From positions 4,278,001 to 4,342,000 of the forward strand of contig JAWMAR010000148.1 in the NCBI GenBank assembly GCA_036785375.1: a stretch of 64,000 nt of DNA, written 5' to 3'. The notes beneath the pieces were generated by a model. That model was not told the DNA's origin. It was given only the letters and a program-made list of their open reading frames with translations, and made no database searches. Made by a program: the position numbers and the translations under genes. Positions 2,430-42,291 of this stretch are shown here, piece by piece (position 1 is the first letter of the stretch; each line of letters starts with the position of its first letter). The DNA comes from Leucoraja ocellata (lineage: Eukaryota).

Positions 2430-3080
2430 TCTCAAACATCTCTATATTATCACACCTTATACTCCTGCACTCCAAAGAATCAAATCCTTGCTTACCCAAC
2501 CACTCCCTACAGCTCAGGCCCTCATTTCCTGGTAACATCCTCATAAATCTTCTCTGAACTCTATCCAGCTTAACATCATCCTTCCAATAACAGGGTGACC
2601 AAAACTGAACACAATACTCCAAATGTGGCCTCACCAATGTCTTGTACAAATGTAACTTACAAACCCAACTCAATACCCCGACTCGTGAAGGCCAATGTGC
2701 CGAAATCCCAGGTTACACAAAAAAGCTGGAGAAACTCAGCGGGTGCAGCAGCATCTATGGAGCGAAGGAAATAGGCAACGTTTCGGGCCGAAACCCTTCT
2801 TCAGACTGATCGGGGGCGGGGGTGGGTGGGGACAAGAAAGGGAAAAGGAGGAGTAGCCAGAAGGCTGGGGGATGGGAGGAGACAGCAGGGGGGCTGAGGA
2901 AGGGGAGGAGACAGCAAGGACTAACAAAATTGGGAGAATTCGATGTTCAAATTCGATGCCGAAATCCCATCTCCTTGAACACCCCTTTCAAAGAACCATG
3001 TACCTGCATTCCTAGATTTATCTGCTCAACACTCCCCAGAGCCCTGCCATTTACTGTGAAGGTCATGTCCTGGTTTAGTT
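2430..3080 (-). mobile_element. CR1 LINE ORF2 fragment, interrupted by the 2711-2956 insertion
   Basis: ORF 2368..2673 reads LYKTLVRPHLEYCVQFWSP...LDRVQRRFMRMLPG, a classic CR1 ORF2 motif. Confidence 0.9.
2711..2956 (-). mobile_element. Penelope-derived 3' fragment with hammerhead-like core, inserted in a CR1 fragment
   Basis: 13-bp direct repeat TGCCGAAATCCCA at 2698-2710 and 2957-2969. Its right end resembles 47858-47907 (end of the GIY-YIG frame). Confidence 0.85.
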
Positions 3081-3430
3081 AGGATTTTAAAAAATAAAAG
3101 TTTAGAGGTTAGCAAAATTATAGTGGACATTTAAAATTTCTCCAGCTTCCACGTTTGTGTGTTGGATCATTTTTACAGTAAAATGGTTGGGGGAAGTACA
3201 TCCATAAAGGTGGTCAAGGCTAGACGCTGGAGTTCTCACCCCCTACCCACTCCACCGGCCAACACTTCATACTATTTCAAAGTGTGAGGGTGTTATTGCT
3301 GATTCCACAATCAAACCTTTGACTAGATGTAGGGATACCGGCCAACCGCAGGCAAATGGGACAACTTGGTCAGCATGTACGAGTTGGTCTGAAGGGCCTC
3401 TTTCTGTGCGGTATGAATCTATGACTATGA

Positions 3431-4095
3431 TTTATTAATGAAAATACAATGAGGCAGATATCTATAAGTGAAATTTTGGAAGCGACGATAAAACATGCTG
3501 CTGTGAACTACATTCGCACCAAACAGAAGTGACTGAGGACATTTTTGCTTCAATGTTTCTATGAACACACACTCATGGACAGACAGACACAGATTTACAT
3601 ATATTTTGTATATTTGAGTATTAACCATGTCAAAAAAATACAGAGTATGATTTTACATAGAGAACTTTAGGCTATATAATAACACTAAACAGGACAAAAA
3701 AAAATCATCTGTCCAATAAGTGAAACATTAATTTAAATATTAAATAAAAGACAAATAAAATAGAATGTTTCAACACTAAACTACTTCTTGTTTTTACTAT
3801 TGCAACACATCCAATAAAGTGGTTTGTGACTTCCATTGTAACAGTACAGATAATATCAGGACAACATGGTTTTCATTCCAGTCTTCTGCTTGCTTGAAGT
3901 ACAAGGGATTTTATTTAAAACACTTACACAAGACTGGCCCACTGTCTAATAGGTGCTGGGGTTCTAAATGACTAGTACCAATAATTTATCACAATTACGT
4001 ATTGTGCATTATTTTATTTCCATTAATTAGCTGAACATGTACCATTCGCCAGAAAAAAAACCCCAGAAAATATGTCCTAAGGAATACAAAGGTTG
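3431..4095 (-). other. ATOSA: ATOSA 3' UTR with putative polyadenylation signal AATAAA at 3431-3436
   Basis: Repeat-free AT-rich stretch after the stop codon. Plus-strand tttatt at 3431-3436. Other AATAAA hexamers near 3910 and 4013 could be proximal sites. Confidence 0.6.
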
Positions 4096-4249
4096 CTAAC
4101 AGCGCGCTGAGAAATGAGGGTTTGTTGGAAACTCTGTATAAGATTTTAATTCATACGCAGCACCACTGTCCACTTCCATCGACTTCCGAGAAAAAAGGAG
4201 CCGGACATCTCTGTGGAGGTAGATCTTCCCAGATTTTGAACTCTGGAAC
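4096..4249 (-). CDS. ATOSA: ATOSA last coding exon: FQSSKSGKIYLHRDVRLLFSRKSMEVDSGAAYELKSYTEFPTNPHFSARC*
   Basis: Acceptor tttatctag, TAG stop at 4096-4098, phase 2 in. Near-identical to the recalled FAM214A C-terminus (Chromosome_seg-type domain). Confidence 0.97.
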
Positions 4250-4669
4250 CTAGATAAAGTGCAAAACAAGCCGATTAAACATCCAGCAGATCTCAAGCTA
4301 TTAGAAACAAAGTTAGCATCAGATTTGTCTACACACCTTTCGCACAAAGGGTGTATGGACCAAGCTTTCAGAGGAGGTAGTTGTGGCAGAGACTATTGCA
4401 ATGTTTAAGAAACATTTAGACAGGTACATGGATATGACAGGTTGAGAGGGATATGGGCCAAACGCAGGCAGGTGGGACTAGTGTAGATGGGACAAGTTGG
4501 GCCGAAGGGCCTGGTTCCACTCAATATGACTCTACAACCTACTTGGAAACATAGATATTAATGATCTTGATATCTTTTGGTATGCTTCCCAAAAGAGTAG
4601 TTATGACCCATTATTCAAAAGAATGTAGTATTACACAGGTGCCTTTACTGAAGAATACATTTGAATGTT

Positions 4670-5195
4670 GAAGTCACCATTACACGCGGATGAATTCGGG
4701 ATGCATCACAGCATGGTTTGGGAACAGCTCCATCCAAGACTGCAAGAAATTGCAGTCATGGACGCACCCAGACCATCATACACACCAAGCTCCCTTCCAT
4801 TGACTCTTTTTACACTTCAGTGCCTTGGCAGGGCCACCACCATAATCAAGGATGTCTCACCCCAGTCACTCCCTCTTCTCCCTTCTCCCATCATCCAATA
4901 GGGACAGAAGTGTGAAAACACCTACATCCAGAATCGGGGACAGTTTCTTCCCAGCTGTATCAGGCAACTGAACCATCCTATCAACGACTAGAGAGTGGTC
5001 CTGAACTATTATCTACCTCATTGGAGACTATCTTTAATCTGAATTAATCTTGCAGTAAACATTATTCCCTTCATCATGCATCTGTACACTGTGGATGGCA
5101 TGATTGTAAACATGTATAGTCTTTTCACTGACTGGTTAGCATGAACATAAGCTTTTCTCTCTCCTTCAGCACATGTGACAATAAACTAAACTAAA
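4670..5195 (+). mobile_element. Rex1/Babar-like LINE 3' end. Related fragments at about 14430-14830 and 27715-27992
   Basis: GCITAWFGNSSIQDCKKLQ and ...DSFFPA. The 14375 ORF ends RFKNSFFPATIRLLN. Tail ACAATAAACTAAACTAAAC. Confidence 0.75.
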
Positions 5196-6054
5196 CAAAT
5201 TTGGCTGAGGCAAGTCTTTAGTTTAACACATGTTCCGGAAGACCATACAATTCATTGGGCACTGAATTAATGTTGGATTTATCCCAAAATACCAAATTTA
5301 TGTCAATCTGGCATCATGGATATTGTGGGCCTACAGTTTTTCAGACCTTGGACTGCAATAGCATTTTTCTGCCTTTATCAACAAGACCACTCCAAAAAGC
5401 TGCATCACCTCATACTTTTTAAACAACTTTCAACTAATGTTTCCATTTATTCTCCTTTATCCTTTAATTATCCAGTGTGGAACTTGAAAATGGCCAAAAT
5501 CCATGTTTCGACTACATCCAATATATTCCCCTTATTAATTAAGTCTACAAAGATAGCCCGACATAACCATTCATTTTTTGGCAATCCATGTTACTCCTGG
5601 CTACTGCCATTGACTGGTCCTTAAAATGTTCCCACAAATGACATGAATACCTGCAATTACCCAGACCAAAATAAAGTAACATCCGAGCGACACTCGGTTT
5701 TTGGCTCGCATAAACACTAGGTGGAATTTTAATCATTCCAAGCACATGGTATAGTTTATTTCTCATTTCCCTTTAAATCCTAACATACATCCAGGGTTCA
5801 ACCGGAAACAAATCATCCCCTTGCCAAATGTATCTTTCTAAAAATATCATAATATCATTCAACTTGCTATCACCCAAGTCAGCATTCATCATCTCTTAGA
5901 TATCCCTTTCTTCTCTAAAACACCAAACATCAAATTTCATGCTACTTTCTTTGAGCATTATCTGCTAATTAACAACGTGGAATTTTGCAATGTTCTGGCC
6001 TATATTAAGATGTCAATGAACATCACTCGTACAGACCAAATGTCTTAATGTTAA

Positions 6055-6320
6055 TGAAGCACGAGGAATTACAGCTGCTGGAATCTCGAGCAAAGAAAAC
6101 AAACTGCTGGAGGAACTCAGCGGGTCAGGCAGCATCTGTGAAGGGAACTAACTGACAGGCGACGTTTCAGGTGGAGACCATTTAGACTGAGATGCGCTGT
6201 TTCGGGTCAGGATCCATTTTAGGACTCTAAAGAAGCGTGCTGACCCCTAAATGTCATCTGCCCATTCCCTCCATGAATGTTGCCTGACTCAATTATTCCT
6301 CCAGCACTTTTTTATTTTGG
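6055..6320. mobile_element. Older palindromic Penelope-derived copy. Further copies near 1020, 1515, 6920, 7705, 8070, 8230, 8480, 9240, 12530, 15930, 19430, 20280, 35070, 37220, 40940, 42545, 45850, 50065, 52730 and 63800
   Basis: Shared consensus TGCTGGAGTAACTCAGCGGGTCAGGCAGCATCT...GACGTTTCGGGTCGAGACCCTTCTTCAGACT or its reverse complement. Confidence 0.8.
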
Positions 6321-8723
6321 TCTTAATATGTCATTGGAGTCTTGGGACCTTTCTATATATAAATTTCATCAGTAATATGAAAATGACAATTGGCAGAAAG
6401 TACTTTGGGATCTGTTGAGATTTTATAAGGTGCTCCAAAAGTGCACGATTTTTAATATATTGAGAAACCATCGTAAATCCACACAGTGCTGTGAATTTCT
6501 TCTTCTGTCTCGGCAGTTTTCTGCTGTTCTTGTCCACGCGAGTAAGTTGTCACGTTTAATTAATGTGGACCTGGACCAGTGAAACCATTACCAGCAGTTT
6601 GATTGAAAATGCTGGATCTAAACTCAGTGTTGTAAAGTTGTACTTTTAGCAATTGCAGAAAATTGTTTCCCTTGAGGCTCGTGTGAAGTCTTGAGAATTA
6701 CATAAATCTCTTTTTATTTGAAGTCAAAATCTCAGATAGCTTCCAAAACGGATCTGACAGAAGAGCTGCATCAAACTTAAATATATGAAATAAAAGGCAC
6801 ATCCACAAAGTACTGCAGGGACTTTGCCTACTTTCTACCTTATATTTGAGGTGTATTTTAACAAACCTTAAAATTTAAGGCTAAGGCATTTAACCTCGAG
6901 TCCAACTGCATATGTAGTTGTAGGAAGGAATGTAGGAAGGAACTGCTGGTTTACACCGAAGATAGAAGCAAAATGCTGGATTAACTCAGCGGGATGGGAA
7001 GCATCTCTGGAGAGCAGGGATGGGTGGTGTTTTGGGTTGAGACCCTTCTTCAGACTTCTGAAGAATGCAGAATTCTCCATCATTGTGTCTACCTATATGT
7101 GATCTAATTATGTATAAAATCAGCATTTGTTACACATTCCGTAATATCTCTAAGTAACAGAAATAGACAATAGGTGCAGGAGTTGGCCATTCGGCCCTCC
7201 GAGCCAGCACCGCCATTCATTGTGATCATGGCTGATCATCCACAATCAGTACCCCATTCCTACCTTCTCCCCATATCCCTTGACTCCGCTATCTTGTATT
7301 GAGGTTAACAAATATTTTATCTTTATATACTCGATTATGGTACATGTTATCTTGCAAGCATTAATCAAATCACCCATTAACTTTCTAAGTTCCAAGGAAG
7401 CCTTCATGATTTAATCCTTTTAATCCAGGTAAGAAATCCCGCTGCATTCCAAAAAGTCGGGTATTCCAAACTATTTGCAGTACTTTAAGGATTTAGACCA
7501 TGACAAATACTCCTTGTATTTCATTCACTAAATATTAAATATATTTATTAATATTTTTGATAATTTTCTCCACCCATCCACAGAGTTTAAGTAAGGTCTG
7601 TAACCACTCTCCCTCCCCAATGTCTCTTTATATATCCACTAATTTTAGCTTTTTTTACTATTTAGAAAATATTTGTTGTCTTTTCAGCTCAAATTAAATG
7701 GGCACACACAAGTGCGAAACACAAAGCGCTGGAGGAACTCATTGGATCAAGCAACGTCTGTGGAGGAATGGACAGGCGATATTTCAGATCAAGAGAGACC
7801 CTTCTTCACACTGATGCACGTACAAATATCCAGTTACCACAGTTTTATCCATTTGGTTAATTTATTTACATTTCAGTGCTTCTACCTACATTGATTACAC
7901 CATTACCTAACTTTCTGTCAGCAGCAAAGCTATACATGGCTTTTCATTTCAAAATTGAAGTGATTTAAAAAAAAATATATTGTGAAGAGTCGTGCACCCA
8001 AGCCAGATCTTCATGGCAAAGAGTAACATCCAGTCAACTACCAGTGGCAAAATCGATGAGGTTTCGAAGTGCTGGAGGAACTCAGCGTGTCAGGCAGCAT
8101 CTGTGGAGGTAATGAGCAAACTAATGTTCAGATCGGGGACCTTTTTCAGACTTTCCAGGACAGTCTGAAGAAAGATCCCAACCAAAATGTCGTCTGTCCA
8201 TTCCCTGGTCAAAAAGTAAAATAATTTTACTATGTATAGGAAGGAACTGTAGATGCAGGTTTAAACAGAACATAGACACAAAAAGCTGGAGAAATGGAAT
8301 AGGTTTCAGTCGAGACTCTTCTTCAGACTTATCGCATTTTAAGCAGATTCCAAGCTAATGTAAAAAATTGCAGACATTTTTTTCCAGTGATCAATGCGAT
8401 AAACTAATTAAAATATTTTGGCATGGAAGTTGCCCGTTTTAGATTCAGAACATTTGAATGCTTTGGCCACTGGCATTCTGACGAAGGGTCCCGACCCAAA
8501 ATATCGACTGTCTATTCCATCCACAGATGCTGCCAGACCTGCTGAGTTCCTCCAGCACTTTGTGTTTTGATCAAGATTCCAACATCTGCAGCTTCTTATG
8601 CCAATATTCTAAACCACATTGTTTTGTGTGGAAATCAAAAATAAGTCAACAGCTATAATTAGCAACTTATTCTACCGCTGTTAATGGCAGCCTACTGTAA
8701 CACGATTCTATTTCTTGCGTTAC

Positions 8724-8923
8724 CTCAAGTGTACGAGGTAGCGAAGTATCCTTTCTTCAGTCTGTATTACGTTTTCTTTATTGGCATGTCCAACAGCTTC
8801 ACGTTTCACAGGAACGGAGAACGTCCTCTGTCGTAGGAATGTCTGGTGATTGGCTGGCATCTCTCTCAAGTCATAAATCACGACAAACATCTTCACCACT
8901 GTCTTGTTAGGATTGAATAAGGT
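8724..8923 (-). CDS. ATOSA: ATOSA coding exon: TLFNPNKTVVKMFVVIYDLREMPANHQTFLRQRTFSVPVKREAVGHANKENVIQTEERILRYLVHL(R)
   Basis: 200 nt, acceptor ctgtttcag, donor GTAACG, phase 0 in and 2 out. Confidence 0.97.
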
Positions 8924-9639
8924 CTGAAACAGAATTTACATTTGAAACATAAACATTGTCGTAGAGGTAAAAGCGCAGCATAAAATGTCTTTGCAGGTCC
9001 TGAGCGAATGAGATGAGTGGCAGAATCAATGTGCACAAAATGGAACTCTTTTAAAAATCGTGATATAATACCTGCCTACATGGCAAACAAAAAAAATCTA
9101 CTTCTAATAATGCTAATTATTAATGACAGCATGATATTGTAACGTTTCCAAATTCCAGAAACAGATATGATATCTGTTGACGGGGTTGAGGAAGCGGCAG
9201 GGAGAGGGGGGTGGATCGAAAGTGGGAGAAATAGATGCCTACTGTGTTGGGGGGGGGGGGGGGGGGGGGAGGGGGGCACAGGAAAGAGAGAGGAGGGGAA
9301 GGGGGTTGGTGGGGCATAACTTAAAATTGAACAATTCGATGTTCATTTAACTGCAATAGATCTGAAGGGGAGGGGGGACTCCCGACCAAAATCATCGCCT
9401 GTCCATTCCCTCCACTGCCATATGGCCCGCTGAATTTATCCAGCAGTTTGTGTTTTGTTCAAGATGCCAACATCTCCAATTCCTCGTGTCTGTGATTTTA
9501 GTTTTCTCCCAGTCTTCCATGGTCACCAACTATGGCTGGGCATGAGAAAGCTCTGCTGCTTTGCCAATGCTTCTTAAAGCCAGAAAACACACAGATATTG
9601 TTCAGCACTCCGAGAGTTGTGCTGGAGAGAGTTCCTGCA

Positions 9640-9947
9640 TTTGCTCCATACATTAATGTGTGTGATAATCTGTGAGGGAAGTCGCAGAGGAGGAGGAACC
9701 GCAGAGCCCCTGGCCCCGTGTGCGGTGCGAGTTGTGGAACTCATGCTGCCTTCATGCTGCTCGTTTTCTCTGTTCCCACAACCAGATGCATGCCGCACGG
9801 CGCATTGATTAACCCTAGTTCTCTCCCCGCTGCCGCCACCTAATGTAGTGTTGCACGCTGCCTGTCAACCCCTACCACGAACGGACGTCTCAGTCTGCTA
9901 TAACCAAAATCCGTTATAACGAGGTCCATAATAACGAGGGTAGACTG
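9640..9947. mobile_element. One end of a pogo/Tigger-like Tc1/mariner element
   Basis: Ends ...CGTTATAACGAGGTCCATAATAACGAGGGTAGACTG|TA with repeated TATAAC motifs. CpG-rich interior. No partner TIR found. Confidence 0.55.
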
Positions 9948-10032
9948 TATTCTTAAAACCAGTATCGATGATACAGACTACAATGACACATGAACGCTGT
10001 GACTAAATCCTAGTCTTATTTTCATTCTCAAA

Positions 10033-10128
10033 TCTTAACATGGACAATAGCACTATGGAACCATTGCATTTAACATGGCCAATAGCACATTGCATCTTAA
10101 CATGGACAATAGCACTATGGAACCATTG
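10033..10128. repeat. Short tandem repeat, 3 units (36/26/35 bp)
   Basis: TTAACATGG(A/C)CAATAGCAC[TATGGAACC]ATTG repeated. Confidence 0.85.
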
Positions 10129-11034
10129 ATTTAAACCAAACGTACACATAGTTTTTTTCTTTCAAGTAATTCTCAATTTTAAGTTCTTGAGCCAATTTAT
10201 TCATCATTAATACTAATCTTTCTCGGGACCATTGATACAGACTATCCATGGGTGCCTGTGATTTGAGCCTGCTTTAAGTGGAGTGCTGATTTTCTGTTCC
10301 TGTTCTGTCCCTGATATGGACCGGGTTGGCCTTCCCAGCAGTTCCGTTTCACAACTACAGTAACTGCTGAAAACAATTAACTGTAACAAATGAAATGATT
10401 TACTGGAATACGGCTCTCGGAGTGATCTAATTTAATAAAGACTCAGGAGAAATTTCTTCTCTCCTGGGACTGAGTGTGTGGAATCTTTACTCCAGGGAGT
10501 TGCGGATGTCAAGTTATTAAGTAAACTCAAAGCGGAGATGGATAAATTTTTGGACCATAGGGGAATTAAGGGTTATGGGGATCACGCAAAGAAGTGGAGT
10601 TGTAACCAATGATCAGATCAGCAACGATCTACTGAATGATGAAGCAGACTCTAGAGGCCATAGGGGCCTCATGCTCCTATTTCTTATGTTCTTATAACTT
10701 GGCTTGGTTGACAGGACCAAGCCAGACAGTTGTCATATTCAAGCCTAGTACTGAAGAAATGTTGTATTGTAACAGGATGATGCTTCAACCCGAGCCCCTG
10801 ACAGCCTTCAGGTGGATGTGGAGAAATTTTATACGGAGGGTGGCTTGGTATATGGAACGAGCTGCTAGAAGAGGTAGATGAGGCCAACAATTAAAAGACA
10901 TTTGGACGGGTGCATGGACTGGAAAGGTTTAGAGGGATAGCGGCCCAATGCGGGCACATGGGACTAGCTTGGATAGAGCATCATGGTTGGCATGGATATG
11001 TTGGGCCTAAGGACCTGTTACTGTGCTGTTATAA

Positions 11035-11963
11035 CCAAAGATCTTAGAGCGGAGCAAGATGGGTTACTCTCACGCAAACGTGTAGTACGGTCATGGGCAG
11101 ATTCATGGGTGATTATAGGACCCATTTTAGCAACCAGCCTCCGCCATCTTGTTCCGCCATCTTGCTTCCGGCCAAAGATCGGATCTTTGTTTCCGCTTCC
11201 GCTCCCGTATCTTCACTTTGGTCTTTGACTTGGGCGGGGAGAAGGAGTGCGCGGCCCGGGGAGAAGGAGTGTGCGGCCCGGGGCAGCGGGGAGAGGGGCA
11301 TAGGAGGGGGGGGGGGGGGAAGACATTGTAGTGTGGGGGGAGGCGAGGGAGTGCCGGGGGGGAGGTTTACAATGTTTCTTATTTAATGTCCCTTGTCTAG
11401 TCTGAAATAAAGTTCATCATTGGATATAAAAATCAGAAGAAATATAATTGTGTGTGTTATATGATTCTATACATTTACATCGCATTCATGTATGCGTGTT
11501 TATTAACATTTTATTCTTTAACAAGAATTAACAGAAGTATGAACTAACAGAATTATGAATCTAACCCTATATCACACACAAAAACTTCCCCCGCAACGTC
11601 AATTACCCTGCGAGTCGGGTAGGTTCCGGTTACTACAAAATCAACTCAAACACTGCTTATGAGCCATTTAAAAATAAATGATTTCAAAAACATTAAAAAA
11701 AGACAATTACCAGAGTCAAATTTTATTCTTGACGAGAAGTATGAACTGAGAGAATTATGAATCTAACCCTATATCACACACACACACAAACTGTTGCCCC
11801 GCAACATTGATTACACCTCGAGTCGGGTCGGGTCAGGTCAGGTAGGCTCCGGTTACTAAAATGGTCGGGGAAAAATGCCCAGGATCCCTGCCGTAGCGTA
11901 GTACACGTCAGCCCATTGTATTTCGCAGGAGTGACCTATCTTGCTCCGCTCTAAGATCTTTGG
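11035..11963. mobile_element. Non-autonomous DNA transposon (MITE-like, unclassified), about 35-bp TIRs, flanked by TTATAA on both sides
   Basis: Left CCAAAGATCTTAGAGCGGAGCAAGATGGGTTACTC, right GAGTGACCTATCTTGCTCCGCTCTAAGATCTTTGG. TTATAA at 11029-11034 and 11964-11969. It interrupts a CR1/HER1 tail. Confidence 0.9.
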
Positions 11964-12864
11964 TTATAACCCTATTTGCAGAGGAGCGTGGAATTTTCTG
12001 AACACCATCATCAACATAGTTCACTCAAGGGAACACAATTAAAATAGATTGTTCTTATTTCTGAAAACAAATTTCCATGCCATCCTCTGAATTAATCATT
12101 CCTGTGCTTCAAAGATAGTCATTTGCACTTGGATATTCTTCAAGATCATAATCTGTTACTAATTAACATGGTCTTTGCTTAACAAAGTGGCAAAACTATT
12201 TTATGAGGCAATGTAGCTGAGATAATGAATCACTGCCTTTCAACACCTGTATCCCGATTAATGCAGAAGATGTTACTAATCTATTGTTTTTTAGCAATAC
12301 CCTGTTGCAACATGTGGAGAAAACACATGAGTATCTGAAATAAATTGTACTTCACTGACTAATTTCTAGCCAAAATTACAGTACATTTTGCTTTGAGTAA
12401 TTAAACAGGGAAACAGGCCCTTTGGGCCAACTCGTCCATGCTGACGGAGATGCCCCATCTAAACTAGTCACATTTGCCCATGTTTGGCCCATTTCTCTCC
12501 ATATTTTCCTATCATGTACCTAACCAAATGGGAAAGAACTGCAGATGCTGATTCACACCAAAGATAGACGCAAAAAGCTGGAGTAACTGAGTGGGTCAGG
12601 CAGCATCTCTGGAGAAAAGGAATAGGTGACGTTTCAGGCCAAAACACTTCTTCAGACTGAGAGTCAGGGAAGAGGGGAAACTAGAGGTATGAAAAGGTTC
12701 AGAACAAATCAGAGCCGGCACTGAGGAAAGGTGGAGCCCACAATGGTCATCAACAATGTAGTCATCAATACCTGGTGGTGTCTCTTCACTATATCACACT
12801 GTCAAAAGCTCTGTCGGCATAAAGAGTCATCAATAAATCAGATAACAATTCTAGCCTGACTTAC

Positions 12865-12933
12865 CACTTGTATGGTTCCTGATGGAGGCACTCGATAGCC
12901 TCGTTTTCCCAAGGATTCCAAATTAATCACACC
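12865..12933 (-). CDS. ATOSA: ATOSA coding exon: GVINLESLGKRGYRVPPSGTIQV
   Basis: 69 nt, acceptor gtttatag, donor GTAAGT, phase 0/0. Confidence 0.96.
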
Positions 12934-13177
12934 CTATAAACAAATAATCCTCAATTCAGAACAGATAGTTTCAAACAAGAAGTTGCAATTCTCAAAAGAA
13001 AAATCAAGTGACTCATTTCAAAAGCATCAATTTCAACAAACCCATAAAGAAACAAAATTCAACAAATGAATAAATGAGTGATTTACCAGTCTGAGAGATA
13101 CGGGTCCTAATCAATTAGTGCTACACCATGACCTTGATCACAAGTCTTTAACTACAGGAATGTGTAAGAACACATAC

Positions 13178-13336
13178 CATGTAGGGTGATGGTGCATTAT
13201 CATCAGAGACACTGTAGAACCAGACTTCAACTGGAAGAGTCATGTGACTGGGACAGAACGTTCCACTTGCTCCCACCTCGGCTGTGAAACCATCAACTGC
13301 TCCTAATGGTTCCAAGCGGAAATTCAAGATAGATTC
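13178..13336 (-). CDS. ATOSA: ATOSA coding exon, DUF4210/Atos conserved domain: ESILNFRLEPLGAVDGFTAEVGASGTFCPSHMTLPVEVWFYSVSDDNAPSPYM
   Basis: 159 nt, acceptor gttctag, donor GTATGT, phase 0/0. Hallmark GFTAEVGASG.FCP and DDNAPSPY motifs. Confidence 0.97.
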
Positions 13337-28260: not shown

Positions 28261-28437
28261 AGATAGACAAAAGTGCTGGGGAAACTCAGCGGGTGCAGCA
28301 GCATCTATGAAGCGAAGGAAATAGGCAACGTTTTGGGCCGAAACCCATCGCTCCATAGATGCTGCTGCACCAGTTGAGTTTCTCCAGCACTTTTGTCTAC
28401 CTTCGATTTTCCAGCACCTGCAGATTCTTCTTAAACA
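28261..28437. mobile_element. Palindromic Penelope-derived element (centre deleted)
   Basis: Inverted arms. 15-bp direct repeat CTGCTTTGCTTTTGA at 28246-28260 and 28438-28452. Confidence 0.85.
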
Positions 28438-29356
28438 CTGCTTTGCTTTTGAGTTGTGCATTTCTTGCTGCCCATTCTGAACCAAAATTAATTGAACTCC
28501 AATATGTAAAAGCAAAATACTGCTGCAAATACTGAATATGCATTTGGCTGCTCTACTAAGCTGCATTTAACCTCCAGCCATCTTCTATTGCCTGGACCAA
28601 AGACTTCATTTGCAGAATAATTCATATATAATCTCTGCACAGACAGTACCCATGATCAGGTTCGAACCCAGGCCTCTAGAGCTGTAAGGCAGCAACTGTG
28701 CCGCTGCACCACTGTGCCGTCCCATCACATTGAAGACAACACCTGGAGAACCTCTTGGCCTGGTCTTTAACAAGCCATTTCCATCATCAAAACCCAAAAT
28801 AAACACTGGGCACTGTTTCCTCCTGTACAGTGCCATGCTTCAATGTTTTTCCAGGTCTGACAGACAATGTACCCCTCCCCTTTCTGAGGTGACTGGATGT
28901 TGCAATCATGAAAATAACTGGACAGTATATTGTTGTTATGCTTTCTTCAAGCAGTTAATTGTGCATCATATCCCACTACATTTCCCGAGGCTATGAATTT
29001 AGCTCTCAAGCAATCTAAAATTATTGAATGATTGCCATGGAACAACATTCTCTTACCTAATCATCTCACTCATTCACGAATACCTCAATCGAATATCGGA
29101 TTGAACATTATTTTTTTTTTTTAAACATTGAAATTTCCCCCAAAGCACAGAATGACGTTCCCATTAGATTCATTTGAGATGAAGATACAACCTCCTATAT
29201 TTTGAGTTCTATGCAGACTTGTATATCATCAATAATGAACCTTATTATAACACTATAATCCTGATGTTAACAGTTTTCATGCAGTCAAATTAAACTGCTT
29301 TCATTTGAGGCCAATAACATTAACTACCGATGTTGGAAAAAGTAAAGCTTCCTTAC

Positions 29357-30950: not shown

Positions 30951-31701
30951 CTAAATATAAAAAAAACAACAAATTTAAGATGTCACAAACAAAAGCATTA
31001 GAATATTGTATGATGCTATCGTTCAAACTCTCCATTAACTTGGTTAGTGTCAGATTTTGGCCTCATCCAGTAAAGAAAGTAGTTTATTTCTCATTTACCC
31101 TATTTACCTTAAACACTGAAAACTATCATTCCTTAAATAAAGAGGCATTGGAGCCAAATGCATATTGTCAAATGCATTGGGGCCAAAACAATGACATTCT
31201 TACTTGATTTAGCCTTACAGGCTGCAGCAGTATTCCCTCAGTTCTATATTTCAGTCAGTGTCATACAGCATTGAAACAGGCCTTTCAACTCAATGTCCAT
31301 GCAAACCAATTTGCCTCATCTAAGCTAGTCCCATTTGCCCCAATTTGACCCATATCCTTCTAAACCTTTCTTATCCAAGTACCCGGCCAAGGGTCTTTTA
31401 AATGTTGTTATTGTACCTGCCTCAACTACTTCCTCTGGCAGCTCATTCCACACACCCACCTATTTCTGAGTGAAAAAGTTGCCTCTTCAGGTTCCTACAA
31501 ATTATTCCTCCCTCACCTTAAATTTATATCCTCTAGTCCTCGACTCCCCTACCCTTAAAAAGGACAAAATATATGCTATTATGAACATAGGCATTACATT
31601 TGAAAAATGTATTTCTAGATTACATTCATAAGAAGGCATAATTTTAAGTTATCCAAAGTCATAATTTTGAAATAATAATAATAATTCCAGACATCACTCA
31701 C

Positions 31702-31827
31702 CGATACAGAATATTGCGTGGAACAGCACCTTGTGACGCACTCAGCCAAGCACTCAGCTGAGAAAAGAAGACATAAGAACGGACAGCCTGCAGAAGGCTT
31801 TTCTCTTCAATAAAACGATCTCCAGTT
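31702..31827 (-). CDS. ATOSA: ATOSA coding exon: TGDRFIEEKSLLQAVRSYVFFSQLSAWLSASQGAVPRNILY(R)
   Basis: Hand translation. Acceptor tcataag, donor GTGAGT, 126 nt, phase 2 in and 2 out. Confidence 0.95.
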
Positions 31828-33311
31828 CTTATGATTAAAAAGAGGGAAATATTAATAATAGTTAGTACAAAGCGTTAATAAAACTAAGCATCTGTTAAAC
31901 ACAGACACTAGTGAAACACTCTCAAAATCTAATTCTGTCATTGGACAATGAGAAATACTTGACTGGGGAAGTGAAGGGAATGGTAACTCTTGCTCGTCTT
32001 TCTCAAACAAGTCATTCAGTTAAGAACGCAATTGGTGCCCAACGTGTCAATGATTTCATGATTTTGTTTAAGAAAGTAGATGTGCTACACACCAAAACTC
32101 TTCAACTATGCATTCATTAACCAAAAGACTTGGTAATTCTAATATATACCTGACAGTTTCCTCATTCTCAAGGTATTTCAAAACTCTGCTGCAGTTGCCC
32201 CTTTCTCTTATCGCGCTGCATGATAATTTATAAGGGCACCTAGTTAAGCAATACCGTGGTCACTTCTCATCCGGGCCAAAAGTCCCCCCCATGACATCTA
32301 CATATCTGTTCCAGAGATCATTCTCAGATTTAAATGGCTCCGCTACTCATGGCTGTATCTACAGCTGCCAAGTGCCAAATAACCTCCCTACCTCTGCTCT
32401 ACCTTGAAGCCACCTCCATTAAAACAAACTCATGTGACACAGGTTTTGGGCATCATCCCTAACTGATCATTATGGGCCCACATAACATTTTGCTTGGTAA
32501 CCCTTCTTGGTGCCCTGTGGAATTAAAGACACCAAAGGTACTTGTATTTTCTGAAGGTGAGTGAAACTTATTTATGTTTTACCCAAATTTATATGTAACC
32601 TCCTAATTTTTACTTTGTTTTTAATCACAGTGCTGCAGAGTACTTCATCCATTATTCAAATTAACGGAGGTTTTTCTCAGTGAAAAATATTCCTCCCAAT
32701 GCAAAAACTAAACGTATAAACCCAGGGAATCTGAACAGGAGGATATAGCAATTTAATGCTAATGTGCCGGAAATTGTGGCATTGAACTATTACAAGTCAT
32801 GTAAACACCTGTAAATCGAGATGCACAGCGATAAATTTAACTACCCAGGAGACTGCTACACATTTTATTCAATACTATTTGGTAGAGCAGGCTATAAAAG
32901 ACAGGGAAATACTTTAAAGATGCATTCAACACTAAATGTAGTCACATGCTTTCAGTAGCATGTGTAGCATTACACATGTGTAGCAGTAGCATTATTTTAC
33001 AATTTATCACAATGATTGCACCAAGAAATTTACATTGTACCTATAAAAGATGCTGTGTTTTACTTGTTGTGAAACAAAATGAGTAAACCCACAGCTGTAG
33101 TGTGCTGTGCCTGAACACATTCCAACAAAATACATGGCCTGTAAGCTAATTCTTACTCAGACAATGGTTTCTGTATTTATATTCTTTGTTTCAACTGTAT
33201 GGCATTATTCATTTTTTTATACAAGACAAAAGGAGGGAAAAAATATATAGATAGTCATTGATTTTGTTCATTTTTTTGAGTATTTCATTACAATGAAGAA
33301 CAAAGACTTAC

Positions 33312-33517
33312 TGTTTGGGCAGTGGCTGTAAAGACCACCTTTCTAGCAGTAAAGCATCTTGTTTGATAGCAGGGTCGTTTATATCACTTCCCTCGGTGGA
33401 TGGACCATCTGCATCACTATAGCAACAGTCAGGAAGCAACATCACCTCAACCATGATGGAAATGTTATTCCTCCACAGAACCAAAACCTGAGATTTGGTT
33501 CTTTTGGCCTGATAACA
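33312..33517 (-). CDS. ATOSA: ATOSA coding exon: CYQAKRTKSQVLVLWRNNISIMVEVMLLPDCCYSDADGPSTEGSDINDPAIKQDALLLERWSLQPLPK(Q)
   Basis: Hand translation. Acceptor ttgacag, donor GTAAGT, 206 nt, phase 0 in and 2 out. Motifs MVEVMLLPDCCYSD and KQDALLLERW are recognisable from FAM214A. Confidence 0.95.
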
Positions 33518-33751
33518 CTGTCAAAACACAGGTGCAAAGGAAAAGAAAATTAATAGAAAAATATCTGAACAACATTTTCTAGAACCAATCAAATCTTATA
33601 ATTTTGTGCCGGTAGATATGATGTTTATTTGAAAGAAAAGTTTAAGAAAAAATAGGAATTCTGTACATTTCATGTTTCATTTCGGAACATATGATAATAA
33701 AACACTCTTAAATTTTAATATATGGCGAGAACTTTAGTTATGAATCTATAC

Positions 33752-33936
33752 CTGCGGCACTTTTTCAGTGCATTCGTGCTTTGTACTTAAGGACTGTCCA
33801 AGCTGTGCTGGAGGGCAGTGAAACCCTTCTGTACGACCTTTCACAGAGCATTCTGGTGTCCGGCCCTCTGTGATTAGCAAGGTCAGAGAAAACAAAAACT
33901 CCTCTGCGTCATATTCAAAGTACTCATCTATAGTAT
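33752..33936 (-). CDS. ATOSA: ATOSA/FAM214A coding exon, N-terminal region: (D)TIDEYFEYDAEEFLFSLTLLITEGRTPECSVKGRTEGFHCPPAQ...KVPQ
   Basis: Translation matches my recollection of the human FAM214A N-terminus (DTLDEYFEYDAEEFLVSLALLITEGRTPECSVKGRTE). Acceptor tttacag, donor GTATAG, 185 nt, phase 1 in and 0 out. Confidence 0.95.
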
Positions 33937-36277
33937 CTGTAAACAACAAACAGAGTCTACTTAATGCACAGGATATCTATTCATCCTTTTTATTAGCTTT
34001 CAGTTTCAATGCATACGAATTGTTACAAGAAGCTGCTCCAAATACTAAACAACGCTACATGTTGTAGATGGCAGTTCCACAAGTTCACAAAGCTCAGTCA
34101 ACAAAAACTCTCCACCCGTAATCATGGGTAATCATGAACAATTGGCACAAGACAAAAGATGTGCAAGAAACTGACAAGGATTATTTGTGTTCATGCCAGC
34201 TGTTTGTGGGACAATTAAAATGGTCAAACAATTACATGGGGCTCTTTTAAATCACAAAATACAAGTTTCCGAATGTATTCCTCCATTACGTTTCACTTCG
34301 GGTGGCAGTTAGTCCTCAGTAGACATTGAAAGATGTGAACACGGCCAGTTATAAAAGCCCTTGTTTCCTCGTTAAATGTAATAATGTCCACATCCCATCA
34401 TACATAGAGAAGGATTCATGATGAAAAAACAGTCGATCCTTTGTTACCAGCTGATACCAAACCTAGCCAATAATTAGCAGCAGGAATTAAAATTTAGCAC
34501 TTCACGGCGATTATAATTGCAGCTGTCATTGGACATGTTGCGGAGCCCTTTCTGGGTTTTACTGTAAATTCTGCAATGCCAACAAAACTACAGCAACATT
34601 TTATTCTGCAGCCACAATGATATATTGAGCAAGGTAAATATTTCAGAACATCATTGTAATCATTAAAATGTACAAAATATGAACAATTGTGTGTATGACA
34701 GTGTCATTTCCAGTTCAATCTGTAAAGAATACAATAGGAAATGTAATTCAGGAATAATTCCATGAGGAGTCCAGCTATTTCCATTAGTACTACTAAAATG
34801 AGCATAGTCCACCTGAATATTTATGCAATCACTTTTGGATACTCAAAATTACATTGTCAATAGCATCTCCTGAAGTTCAGACCATAATTTGTCTTGGCAC
34901 AGTGATATTTAATTATGGCACGATTATATATTACCTCTATATGTGTGTGAAAATTCTCCAGCATTTACCAGAATCTTTCATATACACTTTACTTGACAGA
35001 AATACTGTATTCTACAGATGATTCCCCCCCCCCCCCCCCAATATTAAATATCAAATCACAATGCTCAAGAATCTGGAGCAAATGATGTGCTGGAAGAACT
35101 CAGCAGGTCAGGCAGCATCTGTGTAGGAAATGGACAGATGGCATTTCAAGGCATGACCTTTCTTCCGACTTCACACCAAAAGTCCAGAGAGGGTAGAAGG
35201 CCTACAGGGGTCCAGGAAAAGGGGGAGGAGGAACGGTCCCAACCCGAAACATCACTTGTACATTGTCTCCACAGATGCTGCCCGATCTGATGAATTCTTC
35301 CAGCACTTTGCATTTCAATAACATGGAGTTTTCTTTGAAGCTTCAATTTCCCAGTAACTTGATCAATTATGTCAAGTGCCTTCCACTTCTGAAAACCCAG
35401 AATTAATTCATCCCAGCCTCTACCCATTAGCTTCTGGACAATAAATGGATGTATTGAATCGGTTTTCCAATTGTTTATTATCTGCAGAATCTAATAATTG
35501 TGATATCCCATTGCTCTTTGTAATTTGCCTCGGTTCCTTACAAAGCCACCTGCTAATGGATATTAGGCATGGCTTGTGGTAGCATCTTTGCTCATGAGAA
35601 GATGGTGGGTTCGAGCACTACTTATCAGATTCCAAACTGCACTTGCCCTATAGTAACCAAGACCAAAAGTTATTTCAGTTTTCCACAAAATATAACATCC
35701 CACAAAAGGCAACAAGTTCAATTCTGGGGCAAAGTTGCAAATGAGTGGTCAGAGTATTACATGTCTAGTTGCCAGCAGACAAATTATGGGTTGGGTAATT
35801 GAGAAAGACAAGTGACGATGGATGCCGGAGGGGAGGAGTAATGCAATATTATTTTTTGCTAATGCCAAAATATATTTGACATTCTTGCATACAAAAATTA
35901 ATGGTTTGATTCAAATAGTTAAGTTGCTTTATTTCATGTTGACTGACCAAAGAATAACGGTTATGATGGATTCCATTTATTTCAATCAATACAACTTGTC
36001 TTTGCACAATAACAGACTGACCACACCAAACATTCTGATATCATTTAACTAAAACACAGTAGGCTAGGATAACACCTCTTGGCGGTGCAGACTTATGCCG
36101 TTTTCTGTGTCCTCTTCACAGAAATGAAACAGAATGTGTTCTATAAAATAATAAATATAAAGTTCTTCCACTGTTTACATATTATTTACTTGTGGGGAAT
36201 ATCTTACATCTTGAAGTATTCTAAAAAATGTAGATGACTCCTGTTTAAAATAATTAAATAAACTAATGATTTCATAT

Positions 36278-36341
36278 CATGTAGGAAAGAACTGCAGATG
36301 CTGATTTAAATCGAAGGCGATTCCAACATTTTGTGTCTACC
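36278..36341. mobile_element. 64-bp remnant of the same Penelope-derived family
   Basis: GTAGGAAAGAACTGCAGATGCTG...CATTTTGTGTCTAC between 13-bp direct repeats AATGATTTCATAT (36265-36277, 36342-36354). Confidence 0.75.
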
Positions 36342-36865
36342 AATGATTTCATATTCTTTGTTAGGATAGTATGCAAGATGTTCAAGTAATTACTATTCAA
36401 TTGTAGACACCGTTTGCTTTAAACAAAATGTAGCAAAAAAGATAGCAAATAATGAATGAGATTAGTCAAATATTTTGGTGGAAGATTATTTTGCAGGTCA
36501 TTTAGAGATCAGCCTCCGTGTCTGTCGATCTACCCAAATCAGCTGAAATAAAAGATGTCTTAATTTAATACAACATAATAAAGAACACTTCAGTGAAATG
36601 CCATCCAAAACCATACATTCAAATCTTAGAGGAGCTTGAACTCAGAATATTTTATTCAGAAGTAACAGAGACCCAACTGAGAAAACTTACATGAACCATT
36701 TGATCTGCATAAAGTATGTAATTTTTGTGCAAAGGTTTACATGACAATTGTACTTCCCAAAATAATCAGAAAAAGTTTATTGAATACAAATGTAATTATT
36801 GTATTAAAAGTAATTTATACTACAGCTATTAAGTATACAGTCAGAATAAACACTATTTAGGTGGC

Positions 36866-37086
36866 CACAAAATGCTGGAGTAACTCAGCGGGCCAGGCAG
36901 CATCTCTGGAGAGAAGGAACGGGCGACGTTTCGGGTCGAGACCCTTCTTCAGTCTTCAGTCTGAAGAAAGGTCTCGACCCGAAACGTCACCCATTCCTTC
37001 TCTCCGGAGCTGCTGCCTGTCCCGCTGAATTACTCCAGCATTTTGTGTCTACCTTCGATTTAAACCAGCATCTGCAGTTCTTTCCT
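36866..37086. mobile_element. Palindromic Penelope-derived element with two opposed hammerhead-like cores
   Basis: About 90-bp inverted arms centred near 36955. Direct repeat ACACTATTTAGGTGGC at 36850-36865 and 37087-37102. Confidence 0.88.
36957..36991 (+). ncRNA. Minimal hammerhead-ribozyme-like motif (CTGAAGA-A-AGGTCTCGACCC-GAAA-CGTC)
   Basis: Core boxes CUGAnGA and GAAA, stem II hairpin, palindromic ACGU stem III, GUC triplet. Stem I is very short, so activity is uncertain. Confidence 0.55.
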
Positions 37087-40000
37087 ACACTATTTAGGTG
37101 GCAATTTTTTGTTGTTATTTCTGGTATCATTGCAATACTAACAGTAGATTTAGTTCAAGTAAAAAAGATAGTTGATGCTTATTGACGCATTGTGAGTCAC
37201 AAACTGCACAAGTTCGAAACATGTGTCGGAAGGAATTGCAGATGCTGTACAGCGGGACAGGCAGCATCTCTGGAGAGAAGGAATGGGTGACGTTTCGGGT
37301 CAAGGCCCTTCTTCACTCTGAAGTTACTCCAGCATTTTGTGTCTATCTTCAAGTTCTGATCAGTCGGAGACAATAATGTTTACGAGAGAGCATTGGTCTA
37401 GTTTGTGAAATCACGCTGTACATTGCAAAGCAGCAATTCATAAACTTTGTAGATTGAATACTAATACCTATATAGCTCGTGCTTAAACCTGCAACATAAT
37501 AATTAAAGTCAATGGGGTTTACTAACAAGGATTTCTACAAGAAACTATTTATTCAATATTTTACCTTTAATTCTGAAGCTGATTTAGTCAAGTTTAATAA
37601 TCACCATCTTCTGTTTAAATGGCAGGCTGAAAGGTTTATTTTTTTTACTCCAGCATACACCATCCAATTTGTTGTGTATCTTGATCATAATAAGAGTGGA
37701 GTTAGAGGCCATTCATTCTTCCTGCCTTCCACCATTCCATATCACAATGAGTCTTTACCTCAGCCACTCGACTGTACTCACCTCATATCCCTTAATTGCT
37801 GAAGATGTATTGATCTGCTTGAGTTTATTCAGTGACAGGGCCTCTTGCATAGAGAATTCTGAGGATTCTCTAATCTCTGGGTGAAGTTTCTTCATCTTCC
37901 AACTTGAATTGTCAACCTCCTATTTTGACACTGAGAACCCCGACACTGAGCAAGAGAAAACAGTATTCCACAATCTATCCTATCAATCCACAGAAAATTT
38001 GTGCATGTTTTAATGTGATCACGTTTCATTCTACTGAACTCAAGTGCAGCGTATTGGTCGATTTGCTTAAACAGGGTATGTGAAAAAGCAATGAGATGAG
38101 CAGCAATAATGAGTTTTAAATGACATGGGAGCAAATTAGGTGATCACCATGTTATGTGTTGCTTTACTCACTAGTGCAAAGGTACACAAATGAACACATC
38201 ATATGCTACACGATAAATCAATAAAATGAGTCATTTAGCTTTAAGCAATTCAGCCGGACACAAAAAATACAAGGCAGAGCACAAGGTGAACGAGGGTCTA
38301 TATTTACTCTAGCAAATGACGAGTCAGTAACTATATATAATTGGAAAATAATCAACATAATGTTATAATAATTCAAACTTCAAAGTAGGAAAGAATAATT
38401 CTCTTCAAATACAACTTTGTAATACTGCATCTAATTTCACTTCATATGTCAAAAAAACAAATCGCCAGTACAAACTGTATTTATGAGGGAGTGGGAATGA
38501 AATGCTGCTTAAACAAATGGTTTATTTTAAAGAAGTTCAGAATGATAGTTAGCACTTGTGGAAGCCGCTAACAATTTCATAATATGAAAATAACTTGAAA
38601 TGTTTGTTCCAGTTTCAAAAATCAGAGAGAAAGAAAAACAGGATAAAAACTAATGTCCAAATACATTTCGAATGATTTCAAGATAATGTAACAGAACAAT
38701 AACCAGCAAAAGGAAGCAAACATTAAAATAAATCCCTTTATCTATTTTATCCTAATATAAAATACAGAACACATGTGAAAACCACTGGTTTAGTTCAGTG
38801 AAAATCTTGGGAGCAGAGGAAATAGCTGAGTACTGAAAAACAAGATGAGTGCTGGATGGGTTTCTTAGAAACAAAGCATAAGCCAGCTAGCTCCATCCTT
38901 TATGCTGATGTCATTGTGAACATAGGCAGCTGGGAATGTTTAGTCATAAACACAACACGCCCTGTATGTCACTGCTGTGTTTAACATTACTTCACATTAA
39001 CCGGATAGCTTCTAATGACATGCCCAAAGTTTAAATTCCAAAATAATTTACCCAGTTAACAGTTCCACACTGAACACATTAGTTAAATTCACACAATTCT
39101 TTTAAATGCTCTTTTATTGGCAGAGAACTGGATACCATATGGCCTCAGGTAAACCTTACTGCAACAAATGCCTTGCTCCAAAACAATGTGTATCCAAGCA
39201 CTCCACCCAAATGAAAGCATGGAGTTGTCAGCAGTGTTCACAATGGTATCATAGATCTCTACAAACTTTATAGCAACAGCAGCTTTGTGTTTATCGAGTT
39301 CATTTTAAAGTCGATGGTGCGTGGCACATGACAGAGAAGTGAGGAATCTGAATCTCAGTCACATAAAGGTTCTCGAGGATGATGGAAAGGACAAAGCTCA
39401 AAAGGAATGGGATTTGAGAATGATCTGGTGACCTTAAAATTCAGTACAGTTCTAGAATTCTATTTGTTCCCCCAGATAAGTAACATATTTTCACATGAAA
39501 TATAATTACATTTTCTATATTTGTTACTTGATGTCCGAGTTCTAGTGCTTCCCTCCCTTTCAGATTCACGTCAAAATGCAAAAACATTAATAAAGGCTTC
39601 TTTACCTGGTAATGGTTATGTCATTAATACACAACAGGCCAAAAAGAATGAGCTTAGAAGTAATATTCACTACATACAGTCAAAGAGTCATTCAGCATGA
39701 AGTAGACCTTCAATCCAACTTAGTTCTGACCAAGATACTCCACCTACATTCATCTCATCTGCCCACATTTGGTCCACATCTCTCTAAACCTTTCATATCT
39801 ATGTACCTGTCCAAAAGTCTTTTAAATGTTGCAGTACCTCCCTCAACTACTTCCTTTGGCAGCTCGTTCTATATACCCACCACCCTCCACGTGAACCTCT
39901 CAGGTGCCTATAAATTCTTTCTCCTCTCACGTTAAACCTATGTCCATGAGTTCTTGATTCCCCTTAACTGGATAAAACACAGCATTCACCCTATCTATTC

Positions 40001-42240
40001 TCCCCATATTTTATGCACATAATAATAAAAAAACATTACATAACAATGAATAAATAATATCAACTTGACATTAAGAACACTGGCTCCAGAGTGCTGCCAT
40101 AGTCACATTAGCTTTTTGAAGCCCTGTTCTGGTACTCGGAGTTCAGAACTTAGCCTTGGCTCCCAATCAAACTCAATTAGGCAGTTTCATTACAGTTTGG
40201 TCATCTAAATAGAGGTAAATCTTGCAGTACGGGGTCAGACATCCCAAACTTTCATGCAGTTAGACCAATTCAGATTACAGATACATCTCCAGCTCAGCCT
40301 GTTCTCCTGACTATTATTAGCGTAAAGAAAAGAAAAGTAAATGATAAAAAAGATCAAATGACTTGAGAATCTGGAAAATATACTTCCATAAAATACAAAT
40401 TTAACATTTACTTTGGACCCAATTAGGTTAGAGGACCATATATTCCAAAACAAACCTAGAAGCACTAATGTCCAGAAAGATTCAGGGATCTATGTGCATA
40501 GTGGACAAGGGTGTGATAGGATTGCTTTCAAGATATCAAGGAGAGACAAGAGTGTTTGGAAGAAATAATTTCCATTGGTTGAAAGTTCAAAATCTGGAGA
40601 CATGCCTAAAAGTTTGAACCAGATAAAGTGTGATTGAAGTTAAAATGTAACCTGTAAATTGAATTTAATGCTATGGCGTTAGTCAATTTAAAATCTGTGA
40701 TAGACTAGTTTTTAAAAAATGAAAAAAATATGGGCAAAGGCAGGTACGTGAAGCTAGATTAATCATGATTGCACTGACGTGTGGGAAAAGGCCAGATGGG
40801 CTAAATCACTTATTCCTGTTCCTACATTATGATGTTCACAATTCTGGTTTTGTTGGATGGTGGAATTAAATGTAGCCATTGAAAATTAAGAGATAATTCT
40901 TGTTCTGGAAAAAGTTGTGTGACTTCCATAATGAATGGATTAGGAAGGAACTACAGATGCTGGTTTAAACCGAAGATAGACATAAAATGCTGGAGTAAGG
41001 GTATCGAAGGAAGAAGGGTCTGAAGAAGGGTCTCGATCTGAAACGTAACCCATTCCTTCTCTCCAGAGATGCTGCCTGTTCCGATGGACCAAGTCTCATT
41101 TGCTTGGGAGTGGTGAGAAAAGGTTCAACTGCAGACTGAATGTGAGCAACTTGAATTAATGCATAACATTTGACTCTAATTTTCTAACCATATCCATAAA
41201 TACTCATTAATTGTTTATCAAGCTTAATTGTAGAATGCCGCATTCAATAAGTGTGTATCATAGCAATTAATTTGTTTACTTCCAAATCAGAATAATTTGA
41301 ATTGACTCCATGAAGCACATCATTCAAGTCCAAGAAAATACGGCATAAATCGAGATGCCAAATAACACAGCTTTAAAAAACAAAAACAAATTTAAAAAAG
41401 ATTTTCTTTAATAAAAGTGCACTCATAGCTTACCATGTTAAGAACAGAAACAAAGTCCATTATCCACTTTACTTCAGCATGAGCTTCTTTATGAAGAGAA
41501 TGTTTAATAGGACAGTGTTGGAGTTCATGACAATCGATACACCATCTTGCTGGCTACAAAACAATGTGTGAAGACAACTGGGGTTAACCCCATTTGTTAC
41601 TGCATGGTACACTGTGTGCACATGGTGTCATCCTGATATATACACACATCCATAATTAAAACTGTGCTAGTGAATTTGCAGTGGTATCAGTTTCATTATA
41701 ACTGATTGGCACAGAGATGCTTGTACCTACGAGAATAAATTATTTAATTTATTCTCTGGGGTTTGGTTCTGAGAGTCTTTTAAATGACATGATTCTGATT
41801 TAATTTTAGCTGAAATATAAGCGGCGTTTAGCTCCAGCAGGACCTCGTGTATTTAATCTGGCCTCCCTCTATGGAGCACGTTAGCATACTTGTGGATAAT
41901 TACTGCTTTACACAACTATTCTGTTCATCAGCAAGTCTGTGTCAGAGTCTGCATTTTCTTTTCATGTTTTACCATGGCAATCACTACATTCAGGCTTAGT
42001 ATGACAATGCTATCTTTTCTTCCACCACACCAAACTCAGAATTCAAGTTGCAGTGATTAGATGAACTAAGCAGAAAAGACTCCGATACATGATTTCTAAG
42101 ACTAATCAAGAATCTGCTAACTCAGCATTTGCAGTGAAGACTGAAGTCCAATTCATCTACATCGAACTACACACAAAGACACACACACACAAAACCACAG
42201 TCACACGCAGACACACACGCAAGCACACACAGCCAGATGT

Positions 42241-42243
<3 letters not shown>

Positions 42244-42289: not shown

Positions 42290-42291
<2 letters not shown>

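Follow-up and report, generated by a model that had tools for sequence, protein, structure and literature searches.

Dispersed minimal hammerhead motifs in the skate Leucoraja ocellata are probably terminal stubs of a Neptune-type Penelope-like retrotransposon

The occurrence of minimal hammerheads in the terminal repeats of Penelope-like elements (PLEs) is already published (Cervera and De la Pena 2014, PMC4209133; Frangieh et al. 2024, PMC11167929). The hallmarks of the minimal form include the core, an extra base after A9, a G10.1-C11.1 pair, a palindrome at 15.2-16.2 and covariation in stem II, and activity is low even in dimers (PMC4209133). The hammerhead of the anole PLE cuts only together with its protein; insertion is independent of cleavage, no RNA ends are found at the site in vivo, and the element has two internal priming sites and a tail of 30-40 nt (PMC11167929). 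Penelope of D. virilis carries an initiator-type internal promoter within its pseudo-long terminal repeat (pLTR) (PMC2377424), and a CX2-5CXXC linker is common to Neptune and Nematis elements (Craig et al. 2021, PMC8557442). Here we analyse a 64,000-nucleotide stretch of Leucoraja ocellata (GenBank assembly GCA_036785375.1, contig JAWMAR010000148.1, positions 4,278,001 to 4,342,000 of the forward strand; below, the window), which contains the gene ATOSA and a dispersed short repeat with a hammerhead-like motif. With a probability of about 0.8, this repeat is the terminal piece (a minimal hammerhead and a tail of 65-100 nt) of a Neptune-type Penelope-like retrotransposon, dispersed as short stubs in which the hammerhead is likely an inert passenger.

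A profile built from the repeat and run with nhmmer gives 34-35 matches in the window, as against none in a reversed control; in the count of 34, 19 are on the minus strand and 15 on the plus. They are parts of a 130-nt unit made up of the hammerhead-like motif and the tail. An earlier sequence-only reading of the window had claimed about 25 copies. The family does stand well above chance, but the motif in its literal form occurs once, with 12 sites at six mismatches or fewer. The five copies that it cited (2774-2808, 12625-12659 and 36922-36953 on the minus strand, 36957-36991 and 41016-41051 on the plus) were verified in both coordinates and strand. The motif is spanned by 21 of the 34 matches, and both catalytic boxes and the U-H are kept in six of these, namely the five just listed and 50133 (minus); ACGU is also retained in five of the six. 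Only two window copies, 2804 (minus) and 41020 (plus), have the four stem II pairs and the 2-bp stem I besides, while in most fragments the core is broken or truncated. The family in the window comprises:

568..63887, both strands: all family fragments (profile matches, 34-35).
2711..2949, minus strand: young 5'-truncated Penelope insertion, with the end of the open reading frame (ORF), a pyrimidine-rich spacer, an intact minimal hammerhead (C3 at 2804) and a short tail.
12530..12660, minus strand (sense): stub of hammerhead and tail, intronic in ATOSA, with an intact core (C3 at 12655).
36857..37090, both strands: two stubs set head to head as a fold-back pair, with C3 at 36952 (minus) and 36961 (plus).
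40940..41086, C3 at 41020 on the plus strand, antisense to ATOSA: core-intact stub after an inverted tail fragment.
50067..50139, minus strand: sixth core-intact stub, C3 at 50133, palindrome mutated.
6062-6312, 8065-8206, 28256-28436, 35084-35313 and 37196-37352, both strands: further inverted pairs of window fragments.

Elsewhere in the genome, 400 kb taken as 40 arbitrary 10-kb stretches of other contigs contain 193 family matches. The density in the window is therefore the genome average and is not special to the ATOSA locus, and the spacing of one per 2-3 kb proposed for the whole genome holds, at about one fragment per 2 kb. A strict hammerhead descriptor matches 78,697 genomic sites (control 0), although genome-wide counts may be inflated up to about twofold because the assembly contains near-identical duplicate regions (98-99%). 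A second version of the window region, 98-99% identical, is found on the same contig some 290 kb away (about 4.02-4.04 Mb), and many matches are paired in this way, consistent with an uncollapsed haplotype or a segmental duplication. Motifs with U at N7 and a free stem II were found at 3,620 sites (control 119), and among 100 listed almost all belong to the same family.

The Penelope origin proposed by the sequence-only reading is borne out by intact tandem elements, in which the motif lies in the terminal repeat, downstream of the GIY-YIG domain and on the same strand. A reverse transcriptase (RT) query finds many long open frames in the genome, and several loci have head-to-tail units with a period of 3,946 bp and an ORF of 1,221 aa from an ATG. 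This ORF contains DKG and YIDD motifs, a CX4CXXC linker (residue 1088) and a GIY-YIG domain; Pfam gives RVT_1 at E=1.5e-6 and GIY-YIG at E=0.013, both just short of the curated cut-offs. C3 lies 117 nt past the ORF stop and 164 nt ahead of the next ATG. In loci picked by protein alone, a few of them duplicates, the motif is found on the same strand 74-132 nt downstream of the GIY-YIG end in 26 of 30. There are 843 protein relatives, and the best 120 of the 843 mostly have RT and some have GIY-YIG. The features of PLEs with an endonuclease (EN+) are present: a single ORF with RT and C-terminal GIY-YIG, tandem pLTRs, inverted 5' copies and a 30-40 bp tail, together with the CX2-5CXXC linker between RT and endonuclease. 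On linker motif and host range, rather than on a tree, we assign the parent to the EN+ PLEs of Neptune type. Intact tandem units (L181-L182, at about 5.6 Mb of G000:C8, and L183, L187 and L188) have near-identical 1,221-aa ORFs with a long proline-rich insert. That such long ORFs are open and nearly identical indicates that the family was recently active.

Pieces of the coding region are present in the window. The insertion at 2711..2949 shares 96% identity with the intact element (locus L183) across 239 bp, is flanked by a 13-bp target-site duplication (TSD), and holds the only strict-descriptor match in the window (2804). Another piece is as follows:

47846..48177, minus strand: GIY-YIG end from this Penelope family and some of the spacer, stopping short of the hammerhead; it matches the intact element at 81% (amino acids) and 85% (nucleotides) identity.

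Pfam scores this fragment as GIY-YIG at E=0.005, weaker than the curated cut-off, and as a query against the genome it returns 143,713 first-look candidates. ORF and hammerhead are separated by a spacer (window 2810-2925, and other ORF ends), a pyrimidine tract of 79-283 nt that is bounded by a GT close to the stop and a CAG preceding the core. This spacer resembles an intron, and copies in sense orientation could present host introns with cryptic 3' splice sites.

The ends of the stubs give information on how they were made. TSDs of at least 9 nt bound 36 of 345 copies, as against 6 in a shuffled control. Of these 36 copies, 25 start 0-9 nt before C3, and their 3' ends fall into two groups about 35 nt apart, at +88 to +94 (19 copies) and +125 to +135 (13 copies). 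Upstream of the 192 copies that have the 5' box, there is no element sequence in 99, an inverted partner in 46, the pyrimidine spacer in 44 and a direct partner in 3; in the bare copies, similarity to the element is gradually lost between -3 and -7. The stub start overlaps TCAGTC, an initiator-like motif. Starts close to the cleavage site are seen in only about 4 of 290 fragments, which indicates that cleaved RNA is not the template. The two 3' ends match the anole priming sites and tail (PMC11167929), and we infer that the RT primes internally and runs off the 5' end of the RNA. The two tail ends and the sharp start thus likely mark two internal priming sites and the start of the element RNA.

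We hypothesise the following cycle. Transcription would likely start at the initiator-like TCAGTC just ahead of the core. Reverse transcription would be primed on target DNA at either of the two internal tail sites, as in the anole element, and the element RT would run off the 5' end of the RNA after 100-135 nt, leaving a stub. Template switching would produce an inverted or tandem pair, and a whole unit would be copied if a tandem read-through RNA were primed at its downstream repeat. A competing helix and the 2-bp stem I are predicted to keep the hammerhead inactive, and element protein or a partner RNA would be needed for cleavage. Amplification of the family is a by-product of short retrotransposition products, and not of selection for ribozymes.

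The same element could have acquired a sharp 5' edge in other ways, either by stalling or snap-back of the RT at the palindrome at the start of the core, or because the pyrimidine tract and CAG act as a 3' splice site; we regard this as less likely. Head-to-head pairs hold 97 of 290 fragments, about a third, with 13 in tail-to-tail pairs, and genome-wide there are 1,683 exact fold-back junctions, all perfect and centred on a small palindrome spanning the core start. Snap-back would account for these junctions, but it leaves the bare stubs unexplained. As for splicing, the pyrimidine tract and CAG lie directly 5' of the core, GT is found at the ORF stop in the subfamilies read, and an intron end of D. 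virilis Penelope maps to helix I (PMC4209133). However, in no genomic copy are the ORF end and the core separated by 14 nt or fewer, although intron retention is known in PLEs, and the bare copies have no shared upstream exon: the 10 of 99 that share upstream sequence are duplicates, spacer or other repeats. The sequencing runs, all of them contigs and uninformative either way, gave no pile-up of ends, and no joint of the intron type at the spacer was seen among the 15 of 41 and 15 of 43 joints shown. An in-frame fusion of the ORF into the hammerhead by splicing was considered and dropped, there being no joined copy and a frame that differs between subfamilies.

The layout of the motif is that of a minimal type I hammerhead, as the sequence-only reading had it. 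CUGAnGA and GAAA boxes and U-H are found in the intact element and in the main subfamily consensuses, ACGU is present in the consensus as the palindrome of a reduced stem III, and stem I has 2 bp adjoining the core. A G-C pair at 10.1-11.1 occurs in 257 of 356 copies, and the published hallmarks (PMC4209133) are all present bar covariation: the extra base after A9, G10.1-C11.1 and the palindromic 15.2-16.2. Two of the checks proposed for the motif came out negative. Rfam gives no hammerhead match at E<=5 in the window, its covariance models scoring helices that minimal forms lack, and stem II shows no two-sided covariation in this genome, judged on closely related subfamilies; only a one-sided U-A/U-G change separates them. 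When scanned for relatives in other species, metagenome contigs gave 4 matches, three of which were inspected and are unrelated GC-rich chance matches, and viral contigs gave none.

The core is also not significantly better conserved than the tail. Four subfamily consensuses, from 124, 109, 27 and 15 of 288 copies, differ in loop II, H17, N7 and one U-A/U-G pair, and two CpG-type changes hit G12 and the palindrome in old clusters. Varying columns number 2 of 13 in the core and palindrome and 20 of 65 in the tail (p=0.33). Decay after insertion in ORF-anchored copies is 5/240 in the core against 44/1152 in the tail (p=0.25). An internal comparison of 166 copies gives 7.4% for the A's of the GAAA box and 9.3% for those of the tail, with U16.1 opposite in direction (12.7% vs 7.9%). 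After insertion, copies thus appear to decay neutrally.

These results bear on whether the motif functions even in the active element, or is a dead remnant kept only as a promoter or RT-binding sequence. The latter is conceivable, though we doubt it. The youngest subfamily has a 2-bp stem I including a G-U pair, and a GUU triplet; this, the lack of two-sided covariation and a consensus core not significantly above the tail would all suit a remnant. On the other side, the two differences within the core and palindrome are the CpG-type changes of old clusters, and all the others are at places that hammerheads tolerate (loop II, U-A to U-G, H17 and N7). In read-through RNA of the youngest subfamily, 3 bp more of stem I are possible after a 2x2 loop, with a predicted pairing probability near 0.

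Folding predictions are consistent with inert stubs. The core is predicted to pair with the strand at +30 to +47 in a competing helix; of 96 intact copies, 12 form stem II at P>0.5 and 67 have a sequestered G8. The active dimer fold is at -7 kcal/mol, as against a minimum free energy (MFE) of -33, a gap of about 26 kcal/mol. This predicted inactivity agrees with the low activity of published dimers (PMC4209133) and with the protein-dependent cleavage in anole (PMC11167929). Short head-to-tail repeats of the hammerhead alone were observed at G000:C2:2705385-2705478 and L235-L246, with a period of 33 nt in one. There are 792 head-to-tail hammerhead junctions with spacers of 5-30 nt genome-wide, and such tandems are candidates for natural cis-dimers, although the modelled active fold is at least 9 kcal/mol above the MFE in all 12 of the tandem loci folded.

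It is very unlikely that a subset of the roughly 79,000 intact motifs cuts host transcripts, with element protein or a second copy, and so shapes host RNA. The dependence of the anole hammerhead on its protein (PMC11167929) would allow it, as would a tail, retained by the stubs, that probably binds RT, the 78,697 strict matches, the tandem junctions, and long open ORFs pointing to recent activity. Set against these are the unfavoured active fold at the tandem loci, a same-strand partner within 300 nt in only 11 of 154 core-reaching copies, the absence of strand bias in ATOSA, the absence of in vivo RNA ends at the anole site (PMC11167929) and the low activity of dimers (PMC4209133). A bolder version would be that the still-active family has spread protein-switchable ribozymes through the genome by the tens of thousands: whenever the element is expressed, its protein, bound by the tail of each stub, would open the competing helix, so that intact stubs could cleave host pre-mRNAs in trans. 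To this we give hardly any credence.

Several points weigh against the reading that the stubs are inert terminal pieces of a Neptune-type element. The Neptune assignment rests on linker motif and host range and not on phylogeny. About 8 of the 70 'bare' copies displayed retain remnants of the spacer, judged by eye. A single RNA start is not established, because 5' starts spread over about 9 nt and 32,828 of 39,948 young exact copies (82%) reach at least -4. At this position these copies have C in 32,828, G in 2,563 and A or T in 4,557, so that the signal of a cap G is weak (36% of non-C, as against about 29% expected), and a TSD followed by a clean untemplated G and then by the element is seen in 2 of 20 G loci. 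Among 100 tandem junctions listed, a hand count that includes duplicates gives about 20 G and 7 A/T before the restart. In a pooled comparison the core decays less than the tail (5.6% vs 7.8%, p=2e-5), a result that we set aside as biased, because the copies were chosen for aligning through the core; both less biased tests nevertheless lean slightly toward protection of the core, apart from U16.1. Finally, the folding energies leave out tertiary contacts and proteins.

The host gene was identified from a long minus-strand ORF, which is an exon of ATOSA (FAM214A); its best named relatives are from rays (76% and 71%), with sharks next.

4099..33937, minus strand: host gene ATOSA (FAM214A), with 11 coding exons mapped between 33937 and about 4099, not including the exon of residues 1-5, which lies upstream.

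Within the coding span, nine fragments are sense and six antisense (p=0.61). A link to ATOSA and an effect of sense copies on the host are not supported. There is one core-intact sense copy in the coding span, the stub at 12655, and its stem II is broken, with a mismatch and a G-U replacing G10.1-C11.1. Copy 2804 lies about 1.15 kb past the ATOSA stop codon and beyond three AATAAA sites. The pair at 36857..37090 is predicted to fold into a single long hairpin with both cores buried (MFE -179 kcal/mol, as against -72 for mononucleotide shuffles); copy 36952 has no stem I and would be locked by pairing with its inverted twin 36961. Stub 41020 has a 4-bp stem I from a short local duplication, and two G-U pairs in stem II. 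Most of the hammerhead copies in ATOSA have thus decayed and are unlikely to cleave its RNA, and nothing found here points toward an effect on the gene.

Other repeats are present in the window. A second dispersed short family, unrelated to the hammerhead unit, is found at 1681-1762, 12412, 13431, 16585, 46337, 53376 and 63692. Inverted arms of 129 nt, 94% complementary and 1.1 kb apart, occur at 60146-61501 and resemble the remnant of a Tc1-type DNA transposon. The 3' fragments at 2368-2712, 24226-24618, 42882-43082 and 50389-50631 we take to resemble long interspersed elements (LINEs) of CR1/L2 type; the two that were checked gave no Pfam match. At 62421-62782, open frames overlap on both strands, again with no Pfam match.

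No published description of this family in sharks or skates, or of a pile-up of 5' ends, was found in the literature outside subscription papers, Repbase and Dfam, and some supplements may list related motifs; nor were cartilaginous fish found among the hosts of minimal hammerheads in the passages of PMC4209133 that were examined or in its supplement file 2. The present results extend the association of minimal hammerheads with Penelope terminal repeats to a cartilaginous fish, at very high copy number. An intact young element together with many stubs whose ends can be mapped provides a genomic record of PLE priming sites and possibly of the RNA start. The value of this record is modest and lies in the mechanics of PLE insertion.

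The closest known systems compare as follows. The minimal hammerheads of metazoan PLEs (PMC4209133) share with the present family the core boxes, the extra base after A9, G10.1-C11.1, the palindromic stem III, the position in the pLTR, and an occurrence mostly as single dispersed copies and opposite-strand pairs. Stem II has 4 bp here, as against 7-8 in the Schistosoma families, and stem I has 2 bp rather than 4-5 (2 in D. virilis). The 78,697 strict matches compare with about 9,000 in Xenopus, counted with a different descriptor and, here, in a partly duplicated assembly. The Poseidon element PAc of Anolis (PMC11167929) likewise has tandem units, a pLTR hammerhead, copies made from uncleaved RNA, and two 3' ends one tail-length apart. 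In PAc, however, the ATG is at stem II, whereas here it is 164 nt past C3, so that the tail is non-coding; the protein linker is also unlike that of PAc, being of Neptune/Nematis type. Non-LTR retrozymes (bioRxiv 10.64898/2026.07.22.740005) are similarly non-autonomous, PLE-derived and equipped with a type I hammerhead, but they are tandem arrays with a hammerhead in each unit, whereas the stubs are dispersed monomers or inverted pairs. The stubs were considered as retrozymes and rejected on the rarity of same-strand partners (the 11 of 154 above). With the Neptune clade of EN+ PLEs (PMC8557442), the element shares the RT, the zinc-finger-like linker, the C-terminal GIY-YIG, heavy 5' truncation, partial tandems, inverted 5' copies and the 30-40 bp tail. 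Its ORF reaches 1,221 aa through the long proline-rich insert, the relatives listed having mostly 700-1,000 aa, and it differs from these elements in that truncation is concentrated at the 5' edge of the hammerhead.

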